DNA of 64,000 nucleotides from NCBI GenBank assembly GCA_963743615.1, contig CAVUQF010000003.1:60999-124998 (forward strand), in the 5' to 3' direction. The DNA comes from an uncultured Nanoarchaeota archaeon (lineage in GTDB: Archaea > Nanobdellota > Nanobdellia > Pacearchaeales > GW2011-AR1). The notes under the pieces are model-generated. The model saw nothing but the letters and a program-made list of their open reading frames with translations, searched no databases and was not told the DNA's origin. This document shows, in pieces, positions 756 through 57,133 of this stretch (the stretch's first letter is position 1; each line of letters begins with the position of its first letter). A program made the position numbers and the translations under genes.

Positions 756-1156
756 AATATATAATCGCCTCCGGTCCAGTAATTATCGAGGATGGAAGAT
801 TGCTAGTTAATAGGGATGATAAGGATGATTTTTACAAACTTCCTGGTGGAACGATTGAGGAAGGTGTTGAAAGTTTGGAAGAGGCTTGTCACCGAGAAGT
901 TAAAGAGGAAAATAATGCAGTTATGAAAATTATAAAACCCCTACATCCCATGATTTTATGGAAGAATCCTCAAACAGTAGAAAAAATGTGCATACTTTTA
1001 ATTCACTACGAAGCTAAATTGCTTAATAGGGGAGAGATAAAACCAGTGTATCCAATTCAAGAAGTTAAATGGCGAGATATAGGAGACATAAAAAATGGGA
1101 AGTATAGTGTTGCACCTAACATAAAGTTTCTGATTGATAAAGGAGATATAAAATGA
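746..1156 (+). CDS. NUDIX hydrolase
   Basis: Nudix box 'PGGTIEEGVESLEEACHREVKEENN' (GX5EX7REVXEEXG). Overlaps the gatC-like stop and the gatA start, so it is probably co-transcribed. Confidence 0.7.
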   Translation: MGMKYIIASGPVIIEDGRLLVNRDDKDDFYKLPGGTIEEGVESLEEACHREVKEENNAVMKIIKPLHPMILWKNPQTVEKMCILLIHYEAKLLNRGEIKPVYPIQEVKWRDIGDIKNGKYSVAPNIKFLIDKGDIK

Positions 1157-2484
1157 CAACTGTTGAAAAACTAAAGAAGTATTTAGATGAAATAAAGAAA
1201 AATGATAAGCAAGGAAGCAAGATAAATGCCTTTTTGCATCTGCAGGATGAAAAAGAGTTGTTAAGGGAAGCAGAAGAGATTGATAAAAAAATGAAATCTG
1301 GAAAAGCGGGGAAGCTTGCAGGTAAAATTATTGCTGTAAAGTCTAATATAAATGTTAAAGGATTGATTGCTTCATGTGCGTCCCATGTTCTTGAAGATTA
1401 TAAGGCTCCTTACAATGCCACAGTCATTGAGAAAATTAGGAAAGAGGATGGGCTGATAATTGGCATGACAAATATGGATGAATTTGCTTCCGGAAGCAGT
1501 GGTGAAACCTCCGCATTTGGCCCAATAAAAAATCCAGTAAATTTAGAATTAATTCCAGGAGGTTCTTCAAGTGGGAGCGCCGCTTCAGTTGCAGCGGGTT
1601 TTTGTGATATGGCTTTGGGAAGTGATACAGGAGGAAGTATCAGGAATCCCGCGTCGCATTGCGGTGTTGTAGGAATAAAACCCACATATTCTTCTGTTTC
1701 AAGATATGGACTTATTGACTTGTCGATGAGTCTTGATCAGATTGGAACTCTTGCAAAGAATGTATCTGAAGCAGGTTTGTTATTGAGTGTTATAAAAGGA
1801 AAAGATGAAAGAGATTCAATATCCCAAGATTCTAAGGAAATTAATTTTGATGAAGTTGAAAGGATTTCCAAGAATTTTACGGTAGGTGTTTTAAATTTTG
1901 AATTGCAGAATAAGGAAATACAAAACCTAATTTTAAATAGAATAAATGAAACGGCTAAGAAGCATAATTGGAAAGTCGAAAATGTGACTATTAAAGATAT
2001 TGATTTAGCTATTGAAACTTATTATCCTCTTGTTTATGTAGAATTTTTTTCAGGGACAAGAAAATTTGATGGAAGAAGATATGGAAAGAAAATTGAAGAT
2101 GCTGCTGGAGAGGAAGTGTTAAGAAGGATTCTGGGGGGAAGTGAGATTTCCAAGGAAGAATATGGGAGTAGATATTACCAGATGTCTTTGAAAATCAAAA
2201 ATTTGATTGAAAAAGAGTTTTCTGAAATTTTTAAAAAAGTCGATTGCATTATTTCTCCTACTGTTTCAAAGTTGCCCCATAAAATAGGAACAAAAATTTC
2301 TGTGAAAGAAATGTATGAATATGATGCTTTGACGACTCCCTCCAACCTTGCTGGAAATTGTTCCATAAGTATTCCTGCAGGAAAGATTGGCGGAGTCCCT
2401 ATAGGAATGCAAATTATGTGTGACAAATTTCAAGAACAAAAGATGCTCCAAATTGCTAGAATGTTTGAGAAATCTTATTATTAG
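1153..2484 (+). CDS. gatA: Glu-tRNA(Gln)/Asp-tRNA(Asn) amidotransferase subunit A (amidase family)
   Basis: Amidase signature 'GGSSSGSAASVAAGFCDMALGSDTGGSIRNPASHCGVVGIKPTYSSVSRYG'; 443 aa. Confidence 0.85.
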   Translation: MTTVEKLKKYLDEIKKNDKQGSKINAFLHLQDEKELLREAEEIDKKMKSGKAGKLAGKIIAVKSNINVKGLIASCASHVLEDYKAPYNATVIEKIRKEDGLIIGMTNMDEFASGSSGETSAFGPIKNPVNLELIPGGSSSGSAASVAAGFCDMALGSDTGGSIRNPASHCGVVGIKPTYSSVSRYGLIDLSMSLDQIGTLAKNVSEAGLLLSVIKGKDERDSISQDSKEINFDEVERISKNFTVGVLNFELQNKEIQNLILNRINETAKKHNWKVENVTIKDIDLAIETYYPLVYVEFFSGTRKFDGRRYGKKIEDAAGEEVLRRILGGSEISKEEYGSRYYQMSLKIKNLIEKEFSEIFKKVDCIISPTVSKLPHKIGTKISVKEMYEYDALTTPSNLAGNCSISIPAGKIGGVPIGMQIMCDKFQEQKMLQIARMFEKSYY

Positions 2485-10254: not shown

Positions 10255-11499
10255 TTAGAAGGAACCTGCAGGATACATTTGCCAAGAATTTCCTCCAGGG
10301 CATTCATAAGTGCCCCAACTTGAGGGGTCTGTTGCTTGCCAAATGCAATAATAGGAGTATACTGCACACCCAACTGGTCCTTTTGAGCTATATCCATTAG
10401 AAATTCCCCAATAAGTTCCATCGTTCTTGCAATATTCATATGTAACTCCGTTATTTGTTACACTACTTGTGCCGAAGGGGCAATTGGAGCAATCTGATCC
10501 AGACCATCCTTGACAATTCCCTGAGCCATCACAAGTTTCATCTGTACCGCAAGTTGTTCCTCTTGATAAATCGGAACTGGCACTTCCACTACATGTTCCA
10601 TCGCATCCGATTGTTTTTCCACCACAAATATCGCTTCCACAACTTTGTCCTAGATTAGAAGCGCAACATGAATATCCTTCATTAAGATCACCTTCTGGAG
10701 GGGGGAAATCATAAGAATTACCCCCTGCACAAGTCTTTCCACTTCCGCATGTTCCGCAGTTCAGAGTTCCTCCGCATCCATCACTAGACGTTCCACATGT
10801 ATCAACTAACTCTGAGCAGGTGTAACATGAACTAACACAATTCCCTGAGCCGTCACAGGTTGCATCTGTACCGCAACTTGTTCCTACTGATACATAAGAA
10901 GTTTCAGTACATGACCCATCACAAGCTGTTTTTCCATTGGTACAGGCATTTACCTGACAAGGGTTTCCCATATTAAAACTACAACAATTACCTCCCGCAT
11001 TACAACTCATCCCACTTCCAGTGCAAGTTCCACAAGTTCCTCCACATCCATCACTTCCACAATTTTTTCCAGTGCAGTCCGGAACACAGCAATAAGTTTT
11101 GCTATTGATTGCTTGTTGCAGACTTTCTCCCGATGCTAAATTAATTTCTGTAGCCAGATGACTTGGATTTGGAATGTTTACACTAGTGTAAGTTAATGGA
11201 CTAGAAGGATTGGGACAAAGCCTGTCTGGTGATTGTAGAGCTGAAAGAAGAGTCATTTCTCCATCCTTCACAGAAACCCAAATTTGGCTTGCATCATGTC
11301 CGGGATCAGGAGCAGTTCCTGCGGTATAAACATGAGTTTGTCCTAGAGTGCTAGATGTTATAGAGTTCAAATTTGTTGAAACTCCATCAATGCCCACAAC
11401 GACTTGATCTGCGGGGTGAGTTCCAGATGCGCTAATAAAAGTTATAAAGACAGAGACTAGCACTAAAGAAATTATCAGTATCCCCCTTTTATGGCTCAT
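10255..11499 (-). CDS. Secreted Cys/Gly/Thr-rich repetitive protein (414 aa)
   Basis: Signal peptide, then an N-terminal domain of roughly 150 aa, then more than 60 Cys in repeated modules (CGSDGCGGTCGTC, GTSCGTDATCDGSGNC, GTTCGTDETCDGSGNC). Confidence 0.6.
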   Translation of the reverse strand: MSHKRGILIISLVLVSVFITFISASGTHPADQVVVGIDGVSTNLNSITSSTLGQTHVYTAGTAPDPGHDASQIWVSVKDGEMTLLSALQSPDRLCPNPSSPLTYTSVNIPNPSHLATEINLASGESLQQAINSKTYCCVPDCTGKNCGSDGCGGTCGTCTGSGMSCNAGGNCCSFNMGNPCQVNACTNGKTACDGSCTETSYVSVGTSCGTDATCDGSGNCVSSCYTCSELVDTCGTSSDGCGGTLNCGTCGSGKTCAGGNSYDFPPPEGDLNEGYSCCASNLGQSCGSDICGGKTIGCDGTCSGSASSDLSRGTTCGTDETCDGSGNCQGWSGSDCSNCPFGTSSVTNNGVTYEYCKNDGTYWGISNGYSSKGPVGCAVYSYYCIWQATDPSSWGTYECPGGNSWQMYPAGSF

Positions 11500-19590: not shown

Positions 19591-20205
19591 GTGAAAAAAA
19601 GTTCGTTGTTCACACTTTTATTTGCAATTAACAGTTTTATTCTGCCTTCTTTAGCAAGGGCTCCGCCAATGTCTGATTTGCCCCCTTTAGCTTATGAAAC
19701 TGGGCCCACATACGGTGGAGCTATTGAAAATTTTGTAAATGAGAAGAAAAACGAGGATTTTTTAAATTACAAGATTTATAATTTTAATAGCGATAGTGAT
19801 GATAGACTTTTGGCTAGGATGATCTTTGGAGAAGGGGAAAGTCTCAGCAGGGCGGAAAAAATCGAGATTGCCTATACAGCCATCCATAGGGTTGAGCAAG
19901 GGTATGATAAAAGTCTTAGAGGGGCTATACTCCGTCTTGATCAGTATTCTTGCTTTAATGAGGGTACAGATAATTCTATTTTCTTGAAGGACCCTCTAAG
20001 ACACAATCCGAAGGAGTTTTTTGCATCCTTAGAAATTGCGATAGGGATTTTGGAAGGTAAAATCAAAGATCCTAAGGATGGCGCAACTTATTATTATGAT
20101 CCTAAAGTGCTTAAGACTCCTCCAGAATGGACAAAAGGCTTAGAAGAAATCAAGAGACCTGGCTTTCATCATAGATATTATAAGGAGCGAAGGCTTAGCG
20201 CTTAA
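19591..20205 (+). CDS. Secreted cell-wall (peptidoglycan) hydrolase, SleB/Hydrolase_2 family
   Basis: GTG start, signal peptide, and 'LLARMIFGEGES...AIHRV...QYSCFN...GATYYYDP...HRYYK', collinear with the SleB domain. Confidence 0.65.
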   Translation: MKKSSLFTLLFAINSFILPSLARAPPMSDLPPLAYETGPTYGGAIENFVNEKKNEDFLNYKIYNFNSDSDDRLLARMIFGEGESLSRAEKIEIAYTAIHRVEQGYDKSLRGAILRLDQYSCFNEGTDNSIFLKDPLRHNPKEFFASLEIAIGILEGKIKDPKDGATYYYDPKVLKTPPEWTKGLEEIKRPGFHHRYYKERRLSA

Positions 20206-21322
20206 TCAAAAATTTCTCGATATCCTTTTTGGCTCCTTCTCTTTTTTTCTGGTGTTCTTGCAAAAATTTGTTTATCTTCTCTATTAGAATTTCTTTCAGT
20301 TCAGAGGTCATGAGAGTTCCAGATTTATAATTTTCATAAATTTTTTCAAGTTTTTTATCATCTGATTCAAAAAACATTTTTAGATACTGGAATGAAACAT
20401 CAATGTCTGGATTACCTCCCAGCTTTCTATGTTCTTCCAAAGTATCTCTCCCTCCAGAGAATGCATATTTCTTTATTTTTGTTTCAACTTCTTTTGGGGA
20501 ATCTGTTAGGGCAATGAAAGAATTTGGTTCTGAAGAGGACATTTTCCCTCCGCCGAGTCCTGGCATGAAAAGATGGTAGGTGGAACTTAGTTGCATGAAT
20601 TTAAAATCTTTAATTCTCTGGCTCATGTCTCTTGCTAATCTTATATGAGGATCTTGATCTATTCCTACCGGAACGATCACGGGGCAGGTCCCCTCAAGTT
20701 CGGGTAGCTGGACATGAAGCATGTCTGATGCTTGAAGTATTGATGAAATCATCTTTCCAGGACTTATCTCTCCATATATTGCCTTAAACTCACTGAAAGT
20801 GGAATACTTTGCAAGAAGGTTTTGAAGTCTGTAATATGCATTTGATTTTTTTGCATCTTTACTTCTCTCACTTTGGAAATATATTTCACATTTTTCAGGT
20901 TTTAATCCTAAGGCAATATAGTTGGTTATATACTGATCGATTGCAATCTTCCTGCTTTCTTCCAAACTTTGGCCTCTTGTGTTATATGCTTCTATATCTG
21001 CAACTGCAATGTAGATTTTTGCTCCTAACTTTTGATAAAAAATCATCTGCTGAGCAAGGATCATGTGTCCTAAGTGAAATTTTCCCGTAGGCATCAGTCC
21101 GGTCATCATAACAAATTTTCTTTTGTCCTTTATGGCATCCATAATTTTTTGTATATCTCTATGAGCAAAAATAATTTTTCTTCTAAATAGGACATTTTTG
21201 TTGAAAACTTCGGGTAATTCTTTTATTTGGGAAATTCCAAATTCTTTTATTAATTTTTCATAGTTTACATTTCCAGAAACTTCCCAAGGAGTGAAGTTGA
21301 TTTTTTTCTCCTTATTCATCAT
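20195..21322 (-). CDS. trpS: Tryptophanyl-tRNA synthetase (archaeal/eukaryal type)
   Basis: 'GKFHLGHM' (HIGH) and 'KMSSS' (KMSKS); N-terminal 'TPWEVSG'; 375 aa favours TrpRS over TyrRS. Confidence 0.7.
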   Translation of the reverse strand: MMNKEKKINFTPWEVSGNVNYEKLIKEFGISQIKELPEVFNKNVLFRRKIIFAHRDIQKIMDAIKDKRKFVMMTGLMPTGKFHLGHMILAQQMIFYQKLGAKIYIAVADIEAYNTRGQSLEESRKIAIDQYITNYIALGLKPEKCEIYFQSERSKDAKKSNAYYRLQNLLAKYSTFSEFKAIYGEISPGKMISSILQASDMLHVQLPELEGTCPVIVPVGIDQDPHIRLARDMSQRIKDFKFMQLSSTYHLFMPGLGGGKMSSSEPNSFIALTDSPKEVETKIKKYAFSGGRDTLEEHRKLGGNPDIDVSFQYLKMFFESDDKKLEKIYENYKSGTLMTSELKEILIEKINKFLQEHQKKREGAKKDIEKFLIKR

Positions 21323-21394
21323 TTCATCTCAATGTGAAATTTCTTTTTAAAATTATCCACAAATATATTTATAAATAATAATTCTATTATAAAA

Positions 21395-23446
21395 TTGGTA
21401 AAAATGAGGAAGATAATTTTTAGTTTGGTAATTGTATTTTCGTTGGTGTTCTTTTCTCATTCGGTTTTAGCTCTTCCTTCTTTTAATTCTCCACTTAATA
21501 GCATATACAACCTTGGAGATTTTGCTAATACTTCTTTGACTATTGATCAAGGCGGCAATTTTTCGGTGAATTTAATTTGTAATGGTGTTACCGAAAGGTT
21601 GAGTCCTCCCATCTTTGCCAGTCTGCCATCTATGAATATGCCCCCTATTCCTATACAGTTACAATTGACTTCTAGTCTCGTTGGGGCTAATTCCACTTCA
21701 TGCCAGTTGGAAGCTTCATTAAATGGGAACGCTATTTCTTCAAATGTTTTTCAAGTTTCAAACTTAGTTCAGGTTACAGTTTCTTCCAATGATACAGAGT
21801 TTAAGCCAGGAGATCAAGTTTCTATTCAAGGTGATGCTGTGAAAGTAAATGGACAGAGTCTTAATGGCATCGTTGGTTTGAATGTTTTAGGTCCAGGAAA
21901 CACTTCAATCTATCAAATTTCTAACTCGGTAAGTAACGGATATTTCTCATTTAATTTCTCTCTTCCTTCGGAGATTGCTGCAGGGCAGTATTTTGTTGTT
22001 TTGAATGCATATGAAACAGATCCATCTGGAGCTGAAACGAATGTTGGCTATTATAATTTTAATATACTTGTGGATCAAGTACCAACTAGCCTTAATTTGG
22101 TTCCTCAGAATACTGTTCAGAGCATCTCTCCCGGGCAAGGATACAGTGTTGAAGCCATTTTGTACGACCAGACTGGACAGGAAATGAATTCACTTGTCAA
22201 TTTCACGATAAATGAGACGAACGGGGGAATTATGCGTCAACAGGTAAGCACGGGGCAGTTTATTGAGATTCCTGTTAGTTATAATGATGCTCCGGGCACG
22301 TGGACAGTTTTTGCAAAGTCTAATAATCTTGATTCCCAGTTGAGCTTCGGGGTCTTAGAAAATAAAAATATTACCATCTCTGTACTGAATAGCACACTTT
22401 TAGTAACTAATGAAGGCAATGTTCCTTACACTGACCCAATTACAGTTAATTTTGGAAATCAATCTCTTGTCTTCAATGTTTCGCTAGGGGTCGGGCAGAG
22501 TCAAAAATATGTTTTAAATGCACCTAATGGAGATTACAATGTTGAAGTATCTAGTCTTGGAAGCAATTTATATTCTGGAGATCTATTCCTTACTGGAAAT
22601 GTTGTGAATGTCCAGCAGGCTTCGAAAGGAGTAGTAAGTTTTGTTCAATATCCCCTTGTTTGGATAGTTCTTATAATTATTTTGGTTGTGTTGATCTTCT
22701 TTTTCCTCAAGAAGTTGTATAAGAAGAAGTTCATGAGAAAGATAAACTTGAATAAGAGTTTTAAGTTAAGGGATGGAATTGTGATTAGCGAGGGGAAAGA
22801 TACTAGTTCAAATGGTCCTAAGTTTGTGAACAGCAGGAATGTTGCTGAACTTTCGCTATCTTTACAGGGGACTAAACACGGTTCAACTATTGTCTGCTTG
22901 GGAATAAGAAATTTTGCCGAGATAAAATCTGGGAAAGGAGGGGTAAACGAGACTATGAATAGGATAAGATCCATTTCAGACGAATTCAAGGCAGCGGTTT
23001 ACGAAAATGGGGCAAATATCTTCCTGATCTTTTCTCCAATGAAGACTAAATCTCAAAATAACGATTTAACTGCAATAAAGGCTGCAGAGCAGATTCAGAG
23101 AGTTTTACAAGACCACAACAAATTACTAAAGCAGAAAATAGACTTTGGAATTTCCATACATTATGGGATGATTGTTGCAAAGTTAGGAGTGAACAGCATG
23201 AAATTCATGAGTTTGGGCAATGTGATTTCAACAGCAAAGAAGCTTGCAGCCATCTCTCAAGGGCAAGTTTTCCTTAGTAAAGAAGTTAGGGATAGAATTG
23301 CCACAGATGTTAAGACTGAAATGCATTCCAGCGGAGATATGAGTTACTACACTCTTCTTGAAATAAGAGATAGAGAGAAAAATCAGAAATTCATCAAAGA
23401 TTTCATGAATAAAATGGATAAAGAAGAGAAAGAGAACAAATCTTAA
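21395..23446 (+). CDS. Surface protein (683 aa) with an N-glycosylation-rich ectodomain, one TM helix, and a cytoplasmic nucleotide-cyclase (CHD/GGDEF palm)-like domain that is probably catalytically degenerate
   Basis: Signal peptide; many N-x-S/T sequons; TM 'LVWIVLIIILVVLIFFFL'. The C-terminal 'STIVCLGIRNFAEI ... IDFGISIHYGMIVAKLGVNSMKFMSLGNVISTAKKLAAISQGQVFLSKEV' is collinear with the class III cyclase consensus but lacks the metal-binding Asp residues. Confidence 0.5.
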   Translation: MVKMRKIIFSLVIVFSLVFFSHSVLALPSFNSPLNSIYNLGDFANTSLTIDQGGNFSVNLICNGVTERLSPPIFASLPSMNMPPIPIQLQLTSSLVGANSTSCQLEASLNGNAISSNVFQVSNLVQVTVSSNDTEFKPGDQVSIQGDAVKVNGQSLNGIVGLNVLGPGNTSIYQISNSVSNGYFSFNFSLPSEIAAGQYFVVLNAYETDPSGAETNVGYYNFNILVDQVPTSLNLVPQNTVQSISPGQGYSVEAILYDQTGQEMNSLVNFTINETNGGIMRQQVSTGQFIEIPVSYNDAPGTWTVFAKSNNLDSQLSFGVLENKNITISVLNSTLLVTNEGNVPYTDPITVNFGNQSLVFNVSLGVGQSQKYVLNAPNGDYNVEVSSLGSNLYSGDLFLTGNVVNVQQASKGVVSFVQYPLVWIVLIIILVVLIFFFLKKLYKKKFMRKINLNKSFKLRDGIVISEGKDTSSNGPKFVNSRNVAELSLSLQGTKHGSTIVCLGIRNFAEIKSGKGGVNETMNRIRSISDEFKAAVYENGANIFLIFSPMKTKSQNNDLTAIKAAEQIQRVLQDHNKLLKQKIDFGISIHYGMIVAKLGVNSMKFMSLGNVISTAKKLAAISQGQVFLSKEVRDRIATDVKTEMHSSGDMSYYTLLEIRDREKNQKFIKDFMNKMDKEEKENKS

Positions 23447-55789: not shown

Positions 55790-57133
55790 ATGAGAAAAGA
55801 AATGGCCAAAAAAGAAGTGAGCAAAAAACAGAAAGCAATGAGATATTTTCTCTGGACCATTCTGGGAGTTGTTGCAATAATAGGGATGATTGCAGCACAG
55901 ACTATAATTTCTGATCAGCAAGTCCAGACTGATTACATAAATGCTTCAAATATAAGTTATAATGGCGGGCAACTGGGTTTAAATCCAAGCAATGGGGTTC
56001 TCATTGGAGATAGCACAACAGCTGCTTATGTAGGTCAGAATAATATTGCATATTATCTTCTCACAAATGCAGATACTTTAATGGGAACAACTATCACGAC
56101 GGATGCAGTTCCTGGGCAAACAATTCAGCAGCAGCAGGCGGTATGGGACGCAGATGCAAACAAGGCAAATTATGATTGGATAATTGTCATGGTTGGATTA
56201 AATGACTGCATAAATTATAGTGATACTTCTGCCAATATCCTCTCAAGATATCAGACCTTTATCAATGATATTGATTCAAGCAAGAAATCAAGTGCTATCG
56301 TTATAATCGCAACAATGACACCTGCAAGACAGCGTTTTTATGATTTATACGGCTCGGTAAATGGATCGATAGATTATCAATTGTGGCTTGATGTGAATAA
56401 TGGAATAATGGGCAACGGGGCAAATGCTATACAAAATGTTTCTTACAGAATAGATGAGCATACTATTGCATTAAATGACGGAAATGGAAGTCTTGCTTCT
56501 TTCTATAATGTAAGCGATAATGTTCACGAGAACAATCTTGGAAGGCAGTTAGTAGCAAACGCATTCAGGAAAACATTAAACCAGGCAGGTTATTTAACTA
56601 ATGTCCCAAGTGAGATTATCGATAATTATTTCGGGAACATAAACAATACGATCTACCTTAAAGGGGGATGGTTAAATTACTTGCAGATTCAATCAAATTC
56701 AAGTGCAGGAACAGAACCAAGCGGAGATATTATTCAGCTTCGTGTCGGAAATTGGAATACTGGAGGTAACTCTGGAATCTCGATAAGCAGACCTGCAAAT
56801 TACAGGACTTCTGGATTGTATTTCCAGACGGGAACAACTAATGATTGGTTTATAGGAACTCCTTACAATGGAGGTGCTGCAAGCACTTCTTTGACAATAG
56901 GAAGCTCTGCAGCCATTTCGGCTGAAAAGATGATAATAACAAATTCAGGAGATGTTGGAATAAATACAATCTCTCCGAATGAGACTCTATCAATAAATGG
57001 AATGATGCAGTTAAATGAGACCTTATCTCCCCCATCATGCACCGCAACTTCCAACGGGAGCATTGCAAGAAATGCAACTGGTTTAATATATTGCAATCTC
57101 GTAGGTAATTGGGTTTATCTGTATACAGGATAA
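55790..57133 (+). CDS. Membrane-anchored extracellular SGNH/GDSL hydrolase with a fibre-like C-terminal region and a Cys-containing terminal knob (paralog 1)
   Basis: Signal anchor; SGNH blocks 'LIGDSTT', 'GLNDC' and 'DNVHEN'; C-terminal 'SGDVGINTISPNETLSINGMMQLN' and 'PPSCTATSNGSIARNATGLIYCNLVGNWVYL'. Confidence 0.6.
   Translation: MRKEMAKKEVSKKQKAMRYFLWTILGVVAIIGMIAAQTIISDQQVQTDYINASNISYNGGQLGLNPSNGVLIGDSTTAAYVGQNNIAYYLLTNADTLMGTTITTDAVPGQTIQQQQAVWDADANKANYDWIIVMVGLNDCINYSDTSANILSRYQTFINDIDSSKKSSAIVIIATMTPARQRFYDLYGSVNGSIDYQLWLDVNNGIMGNGANAIQNVSYRIDEHTIALNDGNGSLASFYNVSDNVHENNLGRQLVANAFRKTLNQAGYLTNVPSEIIDNYFGNINNTIYLKGGWLNYLQIQSNSSAGTEPSGDIIQLRVGNWNTGGNSGISISRPANYRTSGLYFQTGTTNDWFIGTPYNGGAASTSLTIGSSAAISAEKMIITNSGDVGINTISPNETLSINGMMQLNETLSPPSCTATSNGSIARNATGLIYCNLVGNWVYLYTG

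Follow-up and report, generated by a model that had tools for sequence, protein, structure and literature searches.

Among the closest architectural counterparts of the protein described here are the animal receptor guanylyl cyclases (GC-A, 9bcv) and the trypanosome receptor adenylyl cyclases (AC) (GRESAG4, 1fx4), which combine an extracellular binding domain, a single transmembrane (TM) pass of type I and an intracellular C-terminal cyclase homology domain (CHD). In archaea, class III cyclase domains are rare (PMC8646023). The C2 domains of mammalian AC, the subunits of soluble guanylyl cyclase (sGC) and chytrid NeoR have all lost the pair of metal-binding Asp residues and carry a basic residue at the position of the catalytic Arg; in these proteins the degenerate site plays a regulatory role as a ligand pocket, for forskolin in transmembrane AC and for GTP in the chytrid NeoR/RGC heterodimers (PMC12264004). 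An analogy in the way of working only is offered by the LapD-type receptors and degenerate GGDEF/EAL sensors: in these membrane receptors, a cytoplasmic and catalytically dead domain of the nucleotide-cyclase superfamily senses a ligand and is linked to surface adhesion. Here we analyzed a 64-kb stretch (64,000 nucleotides, hereafter the window, which was the scope of all window-wide searches) of contig CAVUQF010000003.1 from an uncultured Nanoarchaeota archaeon, a DPANN member of the Nanoarchaeia/Pacearchaeota type, in which the gene at positions 21395–23446 encodes a receptor-like surface protein ending in a CHD with a lost catalytic centre.

The receptor shares the type I single-pass plan with the receptor cyclases, but its ectodomain is a string of macroglobulin (MG)/immunoglobulin (Ig)-like sandwiches instead of a periplasmic-binding-protein fold, it has no kinase-homology domain, coiled-coil/transducer helix or catalytic metal site, and its host is an archaeon. 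The lost Asp pair and the basic residue at the Arg position are shared with AC C2, sGC and NeoR; these three, however, function only as heterodimers in which the other partner bears the Asp residues, and their Asn and base-specifying pair are preserved, while in the receptor those residues are changed and no partner was seen in the window. In comparison with the class III CHDs (PF00211, COG2114; Synechocystis Cya2, 2w01; P. aeruginosa CyaB, 3r5g; M. tuberculosis Rv1625c), the receptor family is devoid of both metal Asp residues, with site 1 usually occupied by Lys, and has Ser/Thr at the Asn position, an invariant Asn (N506) instead of the Gly of the D-I-x-G-F motif and N556 at the place of the conserved His opening alpha3. 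Further differences are an additional beta-strand at the N-terminus and a helix at the C-terminus of the domain, the helix being missing from the canonical CHDs.

Cytoplasmic domain with a lost catalytic centre

The gene and the folded part of its cytoplasmic tail are located as follows:

21395..23446, + strand, receptor open reading frame (ORF), 683 aa from TTG, 680 aa from the likely ATG start
22841..23368, + strand, degenerate class III CHD, residues 483–658
23369..23443, + strand, family-specific C-terminal amphipathic helix, residues 659–683, with conserved F666 and F670

The tail has a true class III CHD fold, with the element order beta1-alpha1-alpha2-beta2-beta3-alpha3-beta4-beta5-alpha4-beta6-beta7-beta8 of this palm variant. 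In a Foldseek search, a check proposed in an earlier note made from the sequence alone, the tail matched cyclase domains, the GC-A domain (9bcv) being among the top matches with E = 8e-11. Remote homology to CHD was also evident from the family profile searched against PDB (E = 2.5e-4) and from hhalign of a family profile against a CHD profile (PDB sequences of AC5, AC8, AC9 C1 and C2, plus Rv1625c, aligned), which gave E = 1.1e-4 over 142 columns, from beta1 on. This confirmed the collinearity with class III CHD and the motif pairing suggested in the note, and added the second metal site. The note had, furthermore, left the choice between a CHD- and a GGDEF-like palm domain; the former stood, while the identity as a GGDEF diguanylate cyclase was rejected, since neither the GG(D/E)EF hairpin motif nor a GGDEF-type fold was present. 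The PF00211 score of the query (18.1–18.8 bits) was under the curated gathering score of 21.9, and only 10 of 30 family members matched this model at E <= 1 (best 8.4e-6): the Pfam thresholds overlook the CHD of this receptor family. The segment preceding beta1 was modelled as a beta-strand and a loop (pLDDT 86–95) with no helix, indicating that the coiled-coil/cyclase-transducer element typical of membrane cyclases is absent. No Pfam match to a kinase domain was found in the receptor.

The active-site positions of Rv1625c were paired with those of the query by hhalign:

Metal Asp1: D256 in Rv1625c, G503 in the query
Gly of D-I-x-G-F: N506 in the query (Asn in the family)
Base-specifying position: K296 in Rv1625c, E537 in the query
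Metal Asp2: D300 in Rv1625c, N541 in the query
Second specificity position: D365 in Rv1625c, M605 in the query
Transition-state Asn: N372 in Rv1625c, S612 in the query
Transition-state Arg: R376 in Rv1625c, K616 in the query

The two-metal catalytic centre is lost in every family member examined (n = 186; close homologues together with the 150 best 50%-identity representatives from the exhaustive search described below). Acidic residues at both metal positions were found in 0/186 sequences: site 1 was mostly occupied by Lys (K96/N32/R14) with Asp in 5/186, and site 2 by aromatic residues or Asn (Y64/N58/F16) with Asp in 0/186. Alignment slippage was ruled out by a column-by-column scan around both sites. 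Within 3 residues on either side of site 1 the sum of Asp and Glu never exceeded 3%, and in the beta2-beta3 hairpin its maxima were 72% (E537) and 49% (position 540), neither of them invariant; there was no invariant acidic residue near either metal site. The replacement of the metal Asp and catalytic Asn/Arg residues, claimed in the earlier note for the single protein, thus holds for the query (G503, N541, S612 and K616), and the annotated multiple alignment, also proposed there, extended the loss of the metal site to its relatives.

The remaining catalytic positions had changed to a different extent. The Asn position (S612) was mostly Thr or Ser (T61/S49/N20 and others), and the Arg position (K616) had undergone a conservative substitution (K152/R32), with a true Arg in 17% only. 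The purine-specifying pair corresponded to neither canonical combination: its first position was Glu in 72%, as in guanylyl cyclases, and its second Met/Thr. E537 was also aligned with the Glu of the guanylyl cyclase Cya2 in an independent HMMER alignment. Conserved basic residues were located at or beside the former active-site positions (K505, 94%; K532, 91%; K615, 99%; K616, 99%; K640, 94%), together with the family-specific invariants T551 and N575 (186/186 each), N556 (184/186) and N506 (177/186). The tail and the membrane-proximal ectodomain sandwich D4 were the most conserved parts of the receptor, with a majority-residue fraction of 0.62, and the juxtamembrane linker was the least conserved region (0.43). 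Purifying selection on the tail is strong. Judging from its residues, the tail probably makes no cyclic nucleotides.

Membrane topology and ectodomain

The remaining parts of the protein, from the N-terminus to the linker, are the following:

21395..21472, + strand, Sec-type signal peptide, residues 1–26, cleavage after VLA
21473..21763, + strand, ectodomain D1 beta-sandwich, residues 27–123, the most variable domain
21764..22072, + strand, ectodomain D2, macroglobulin MG2-type, residues 124–226, Pfam PF01835
22082..22357, + strand, ectodomain D3 beta-sandwich, residues 230–321, with an invariant YDQTG motif
22370..22618, + strand, ectodomain D4, membrane-proximal beta-sandwich, residues 326–408, with an invariant NxGNVPY motif
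22652..22714, + strand, single TM helix, residues 420–440
22715..22840, + strand, basic juxtamembrane linker, residues 441–482, net charge +8

The receptor is a single-pass type I membrane protein, with the ectodomain outside, one TM helix and the CHD inside. The hydropathy scan revealed only two hydrophobic segments, the N-terminal signal (residues 6–30) and the TM helix (residues ~420–440), and an A-x-A-like signal cleavage site was present in all family members. The TM helix is followed by the basic run KKLYKKKFMRK, so that, by the positive-inside rule, the last 243 residues lie on the cytoplasmic side. The signal peptide, single TM helix and cytoplasmic tail proposed in the note were all recovered in this topology check. 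The length of the juxtamembrane linker varied from 32 to 99 aa across the family.

According to the domain models, the ectodomain is composed of four MG/Ig-like beta-sandwiches in a stalk, an organization typical of surface binding or adhesion proteins. The match of D2 to PF01835 (E = 5e-10) passed the gathering cutoff, and this MG domain is shared with alpha-2-macroglobulin (A2M), complement C3/C4/C5, CD109 and bacterial A2M. In contrast to the macroglobulins, the receptor has four sandwiches only, lacks the thioester domain, the CxEQ motif and the bait region, and is anchored by its own TM helix. The whole receptor contains only three Cys residues, C62, C103 and C501; the first two are invariant in D1, and we infer a disulfide bond between them. 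The prediction of an approximately 400-aa ectodomain rich in N-glycan sequons was correct for the ectodomain itself, but its sequon richness was weak, with 12 N-X-S/T sites against 8.3 +/- 2.5 expected from the composition.

Gene start, family distribution and gene neighbourhood

The ORF of 683 aa at 21395–23446 exists as described if counted from TTG. The ATG at 21404 is, however, the likely start (680 aa) in place of the TTG chosen by the ORF finder, because all homologues begin with MRK. Sequence inspection revealed a putative promoter in front of it:

21365..21385, + strand, TATA-like AT-rich element tttataaata, ~30 nt upstream of the ATG

The gene is transcribed divergently from that of TrpRS, and the intergenic region between them, which includes the TATA-like element, is 72–81 nt in the window. 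Such a short divergent spacer, of ~70–90 nt, was found in the window (21322..21404) and in the loci L001, L003, L004 and L005, implying back-to-back promoters. At the other end, the receptor gene (+) and the convergent PheRS-beta gene (-) overlap by 4 nt at their stop codons (window 23443..23446), which leaves no space for an intergenic terminator.

The exhaustive profile search recovered 461 representatives at E <= 1e-30 and 606 at E <= 1e-10. Among the 150 listed, the domain was C-terminal in every full-length protein and the protein size was ~650–850 aa. Where homologues had a source name, it was 'hypothetical protein', from Nanoarchaeota or Pacearchaeota metagenome-assembled genomes (MAGs). 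The receptor founds or belongs to an unannotated DPANN-specific family with a degenerate class III cyclase domain. Its neighbours in the window are archaeal ThrRS, a secreted Hydrolase_2 protein, TrpRS, PheRS beta, HIT and PheRS alpha, the remaining window genes being housekeeping (FtsZ, MCM, PolB, Cdc48, Lhr and topoisomerase I). The gene order was identical in the nearest GTDB representative, a Candidatus Nanoarchaeia MAG, and homologues with 28–34% identity were still divergent from TrpRS, with ThrRS nearby and different downstream genes. Neither a receptor paralogue nor a second CHD was found in the window. The receptor gene behaves as a vertically inherited core gene and not as a mobile or defence gene.

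Three further genes of the window deserve mention. The Hydrolase_2 protein (SleB-type cell-wall/peptidoglycan hydrolase, 204 aa, secreted; window 19591..20205, + strand; E = 9.5e-8, over the gathering score) is encoded between ThrRS and TrpRS within an archaeal housekeeping region, has a counterpart at 769..1386 of locus L005 and is also conserved in the nearest relative in GTDB; the presence of such an enzyme in a DPANN archaeon could hint at interaction with bacteria. A 447-aa protein (window 55790..57133, + strand) contains a GDSL-type lipase/acylhydrolase domain (E = 2e-9) and may bear on host-lipid scavenging. Finally, a 414-aa ORF (window 10255..11499, - strand) had no Pfam match at E <= 1e-5, amid well-annotated housekeeping genes.

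Possible function of the receptor

The explanation we favour, with a probability of roughly 0.55, is that the protein would act as a receptor or adhesin coupling binding at the surface to a binding state in the cytoplasm through a non-catalytic CHD. The stalk has a variable distal and a highly conserved membrane-proximal domain, and the CHD is tethered inside the cell by the flexible basic linker. By analogy with other CHDs, two copies of the domain probably associate head-to-tail; the meeting of two receptors outside the cell would then give rise to the dimer in the cytoplasm, or vice versa, and the coupling would proceed by clustering or dimerisation and not by a rigid coiled-coil transducer. 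The former active-site cleft, predicted to be lined by Lys/Arg (K505, K532, K615, K616 and K640) together with N506, T551, N556 and N575, may serve as a metal-independent pocket for an anionic ligand (a nucleotide or some other molecule with phosphate groups), or a partner protein may dock there. The surface binding event could plausibly be host contact in these episymbionts, a speculation from the DPANN lifestyle. The earlier note had already suggested that an extracellular sensor or adhesin is joined to a pseudo-cyclase or to an effector-binding module, and this is the best-supported reading, with non-catalysis and ligand binding as its putative parts. A more far-reaching version, in which the family would serve the whole lineage as a receptor for nucleotides or second messengers, built from a cyclase fold and independent of metal, and would link host attachment in Nanoarchaeia with the state of the cytoplasm, by outside-in contact sensing or by LapD-like inside-out control of an Ig-like adhesin, appears quite unlikely.

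Several points weigh against the favoured explanation. All its functional claims are deduced from sequence, including the Lys-rich pocket, which follows from the alignment to CHD active-site positions, and the idea that the signal from outside is host contact is speculative. E537 (72%) and D/E540 (49%) keep some acidic character near the hairpin, and a catalytically competent CHD partner may sit elsewhere in the genome, beyond the window. A warning against naming pseudoenzymes from sequence alone comes from 6YII, which was called an 'AC-like ATP-binding protein' at deposition but is today considered to be PaPycC, an active pyrimidine cyclase (PMC11224242).

An unlikely, but still sizeable, alternative is a structural envelope protein, whose sandwiches would form part of a surface layer (S-layer) or a host-attachment fibre and whose CHD-like domain would be merely a plug for dimerisation or anchoring, without ligand sensing or signalling. 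Such a plug might perhaps lie against the acidic membrane, with its Lys-rich face and the basic linker making the contact; however, it would need neither the polar T551 and N575, invariant in 186/186, nor the 99% conserved Lys-Lys at the former active-site positions. No part of the receptor is better conserved than the tail, and a protein of 683 aa with only four Ig-like domains would be a small building block for an S-layer lattice. It is, moreover, very unlikely that the tail acts as a complementing C2-like subunit, giving its base-recognition and transition-state residues (E537, K/R616) to a second, Asp-bearing CHD encoded elsewhere, with one active and one regulatory site as the outcome, as in mammalian AC C1/C2, sGC alpha/beta and chytrid NeoR/RGC. 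The loss of both Asp with a basic residue kept at the Arg position does follow the AC C2 pattern, two independent alignments place E537 at the Glu by which guanylyl cyclases specify guanine, and there are well-documented CHD heterodimers in which one of the sites is dead (PMC12264004); but the window has no other CHD, most members have Ser/Thr in place of the transition-state Asn, the residue at the second specificity position is Met/Thr and not Cys/Asp, DPANN genomes are very small and class III cyclases are, as mentioned, rare in archaea.

A small probability was also kept, because of the PaPycC precedent of a supposedly inactive CHD, for a non-canonical active enzyme, in which the homodimeric tail would perform nucleotidyl transfer or cyclisation through E537, D/E540, N506 and Lys, or with an unusual substrate. 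The strong purifying selection on the pocket positions and a weak HMM similarity to PycC models (E = 7e-5) are consistent with this possibility, whereas two-metal-ion catalysis needs the Asp pair in all known palm-domain cyclases, PycC itself included, and the receptor family has it in none of the 186 members examined, usually with Lys at site 1 and with no invariant acidic residue nearby. A Pycsar-like or other anti-virus defence cyclase is hardly credible. PADLOC produced only weak CHD-level PycC matches (~18–20 bits), a generic similarity weaker than that to ordinary cyclases; the membrane-receptor architecture and the absent metal Asp pair do not fit either, and the genomic context effectively refutes it, as the neighbours (TrpRS, ThrRS, PheRS and HIT) include no adjacent effector gene and the conserved synteny with single-copy core distribution is unlike a defence island.

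The genomes of DPANN archaea are tiny and their life depends on host-cell contact; to our knowledge, however, hardly anything has been learned of the way in which these archaea sense their hosts or keep hold of them. The receptor is conserved, syntenic and single-copy in a large family of 461 representative clusters that has no annotation. It joins an Ig-like stalk at the surface to a conserved cyclase-fold domain predicted to be unable to bind catalytic metals, and provides a concrete target for experiments on the DPANN-host interaction. A family of receptor-linked pseudo-cyclases would lengthen the short list of CHD pseudoenzymes, and the interest would grow much should the tail turn out to sense a second messenger or host contact. 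If the second-messenger receptor reading were true, this would be the first signalling device defined for the uncultivated Nanoarchaeia episymbionts, and an archaeal case of the plan of extracellular domain, single TM helix and intracellular CHD that is otherwise known from eukaryotes.
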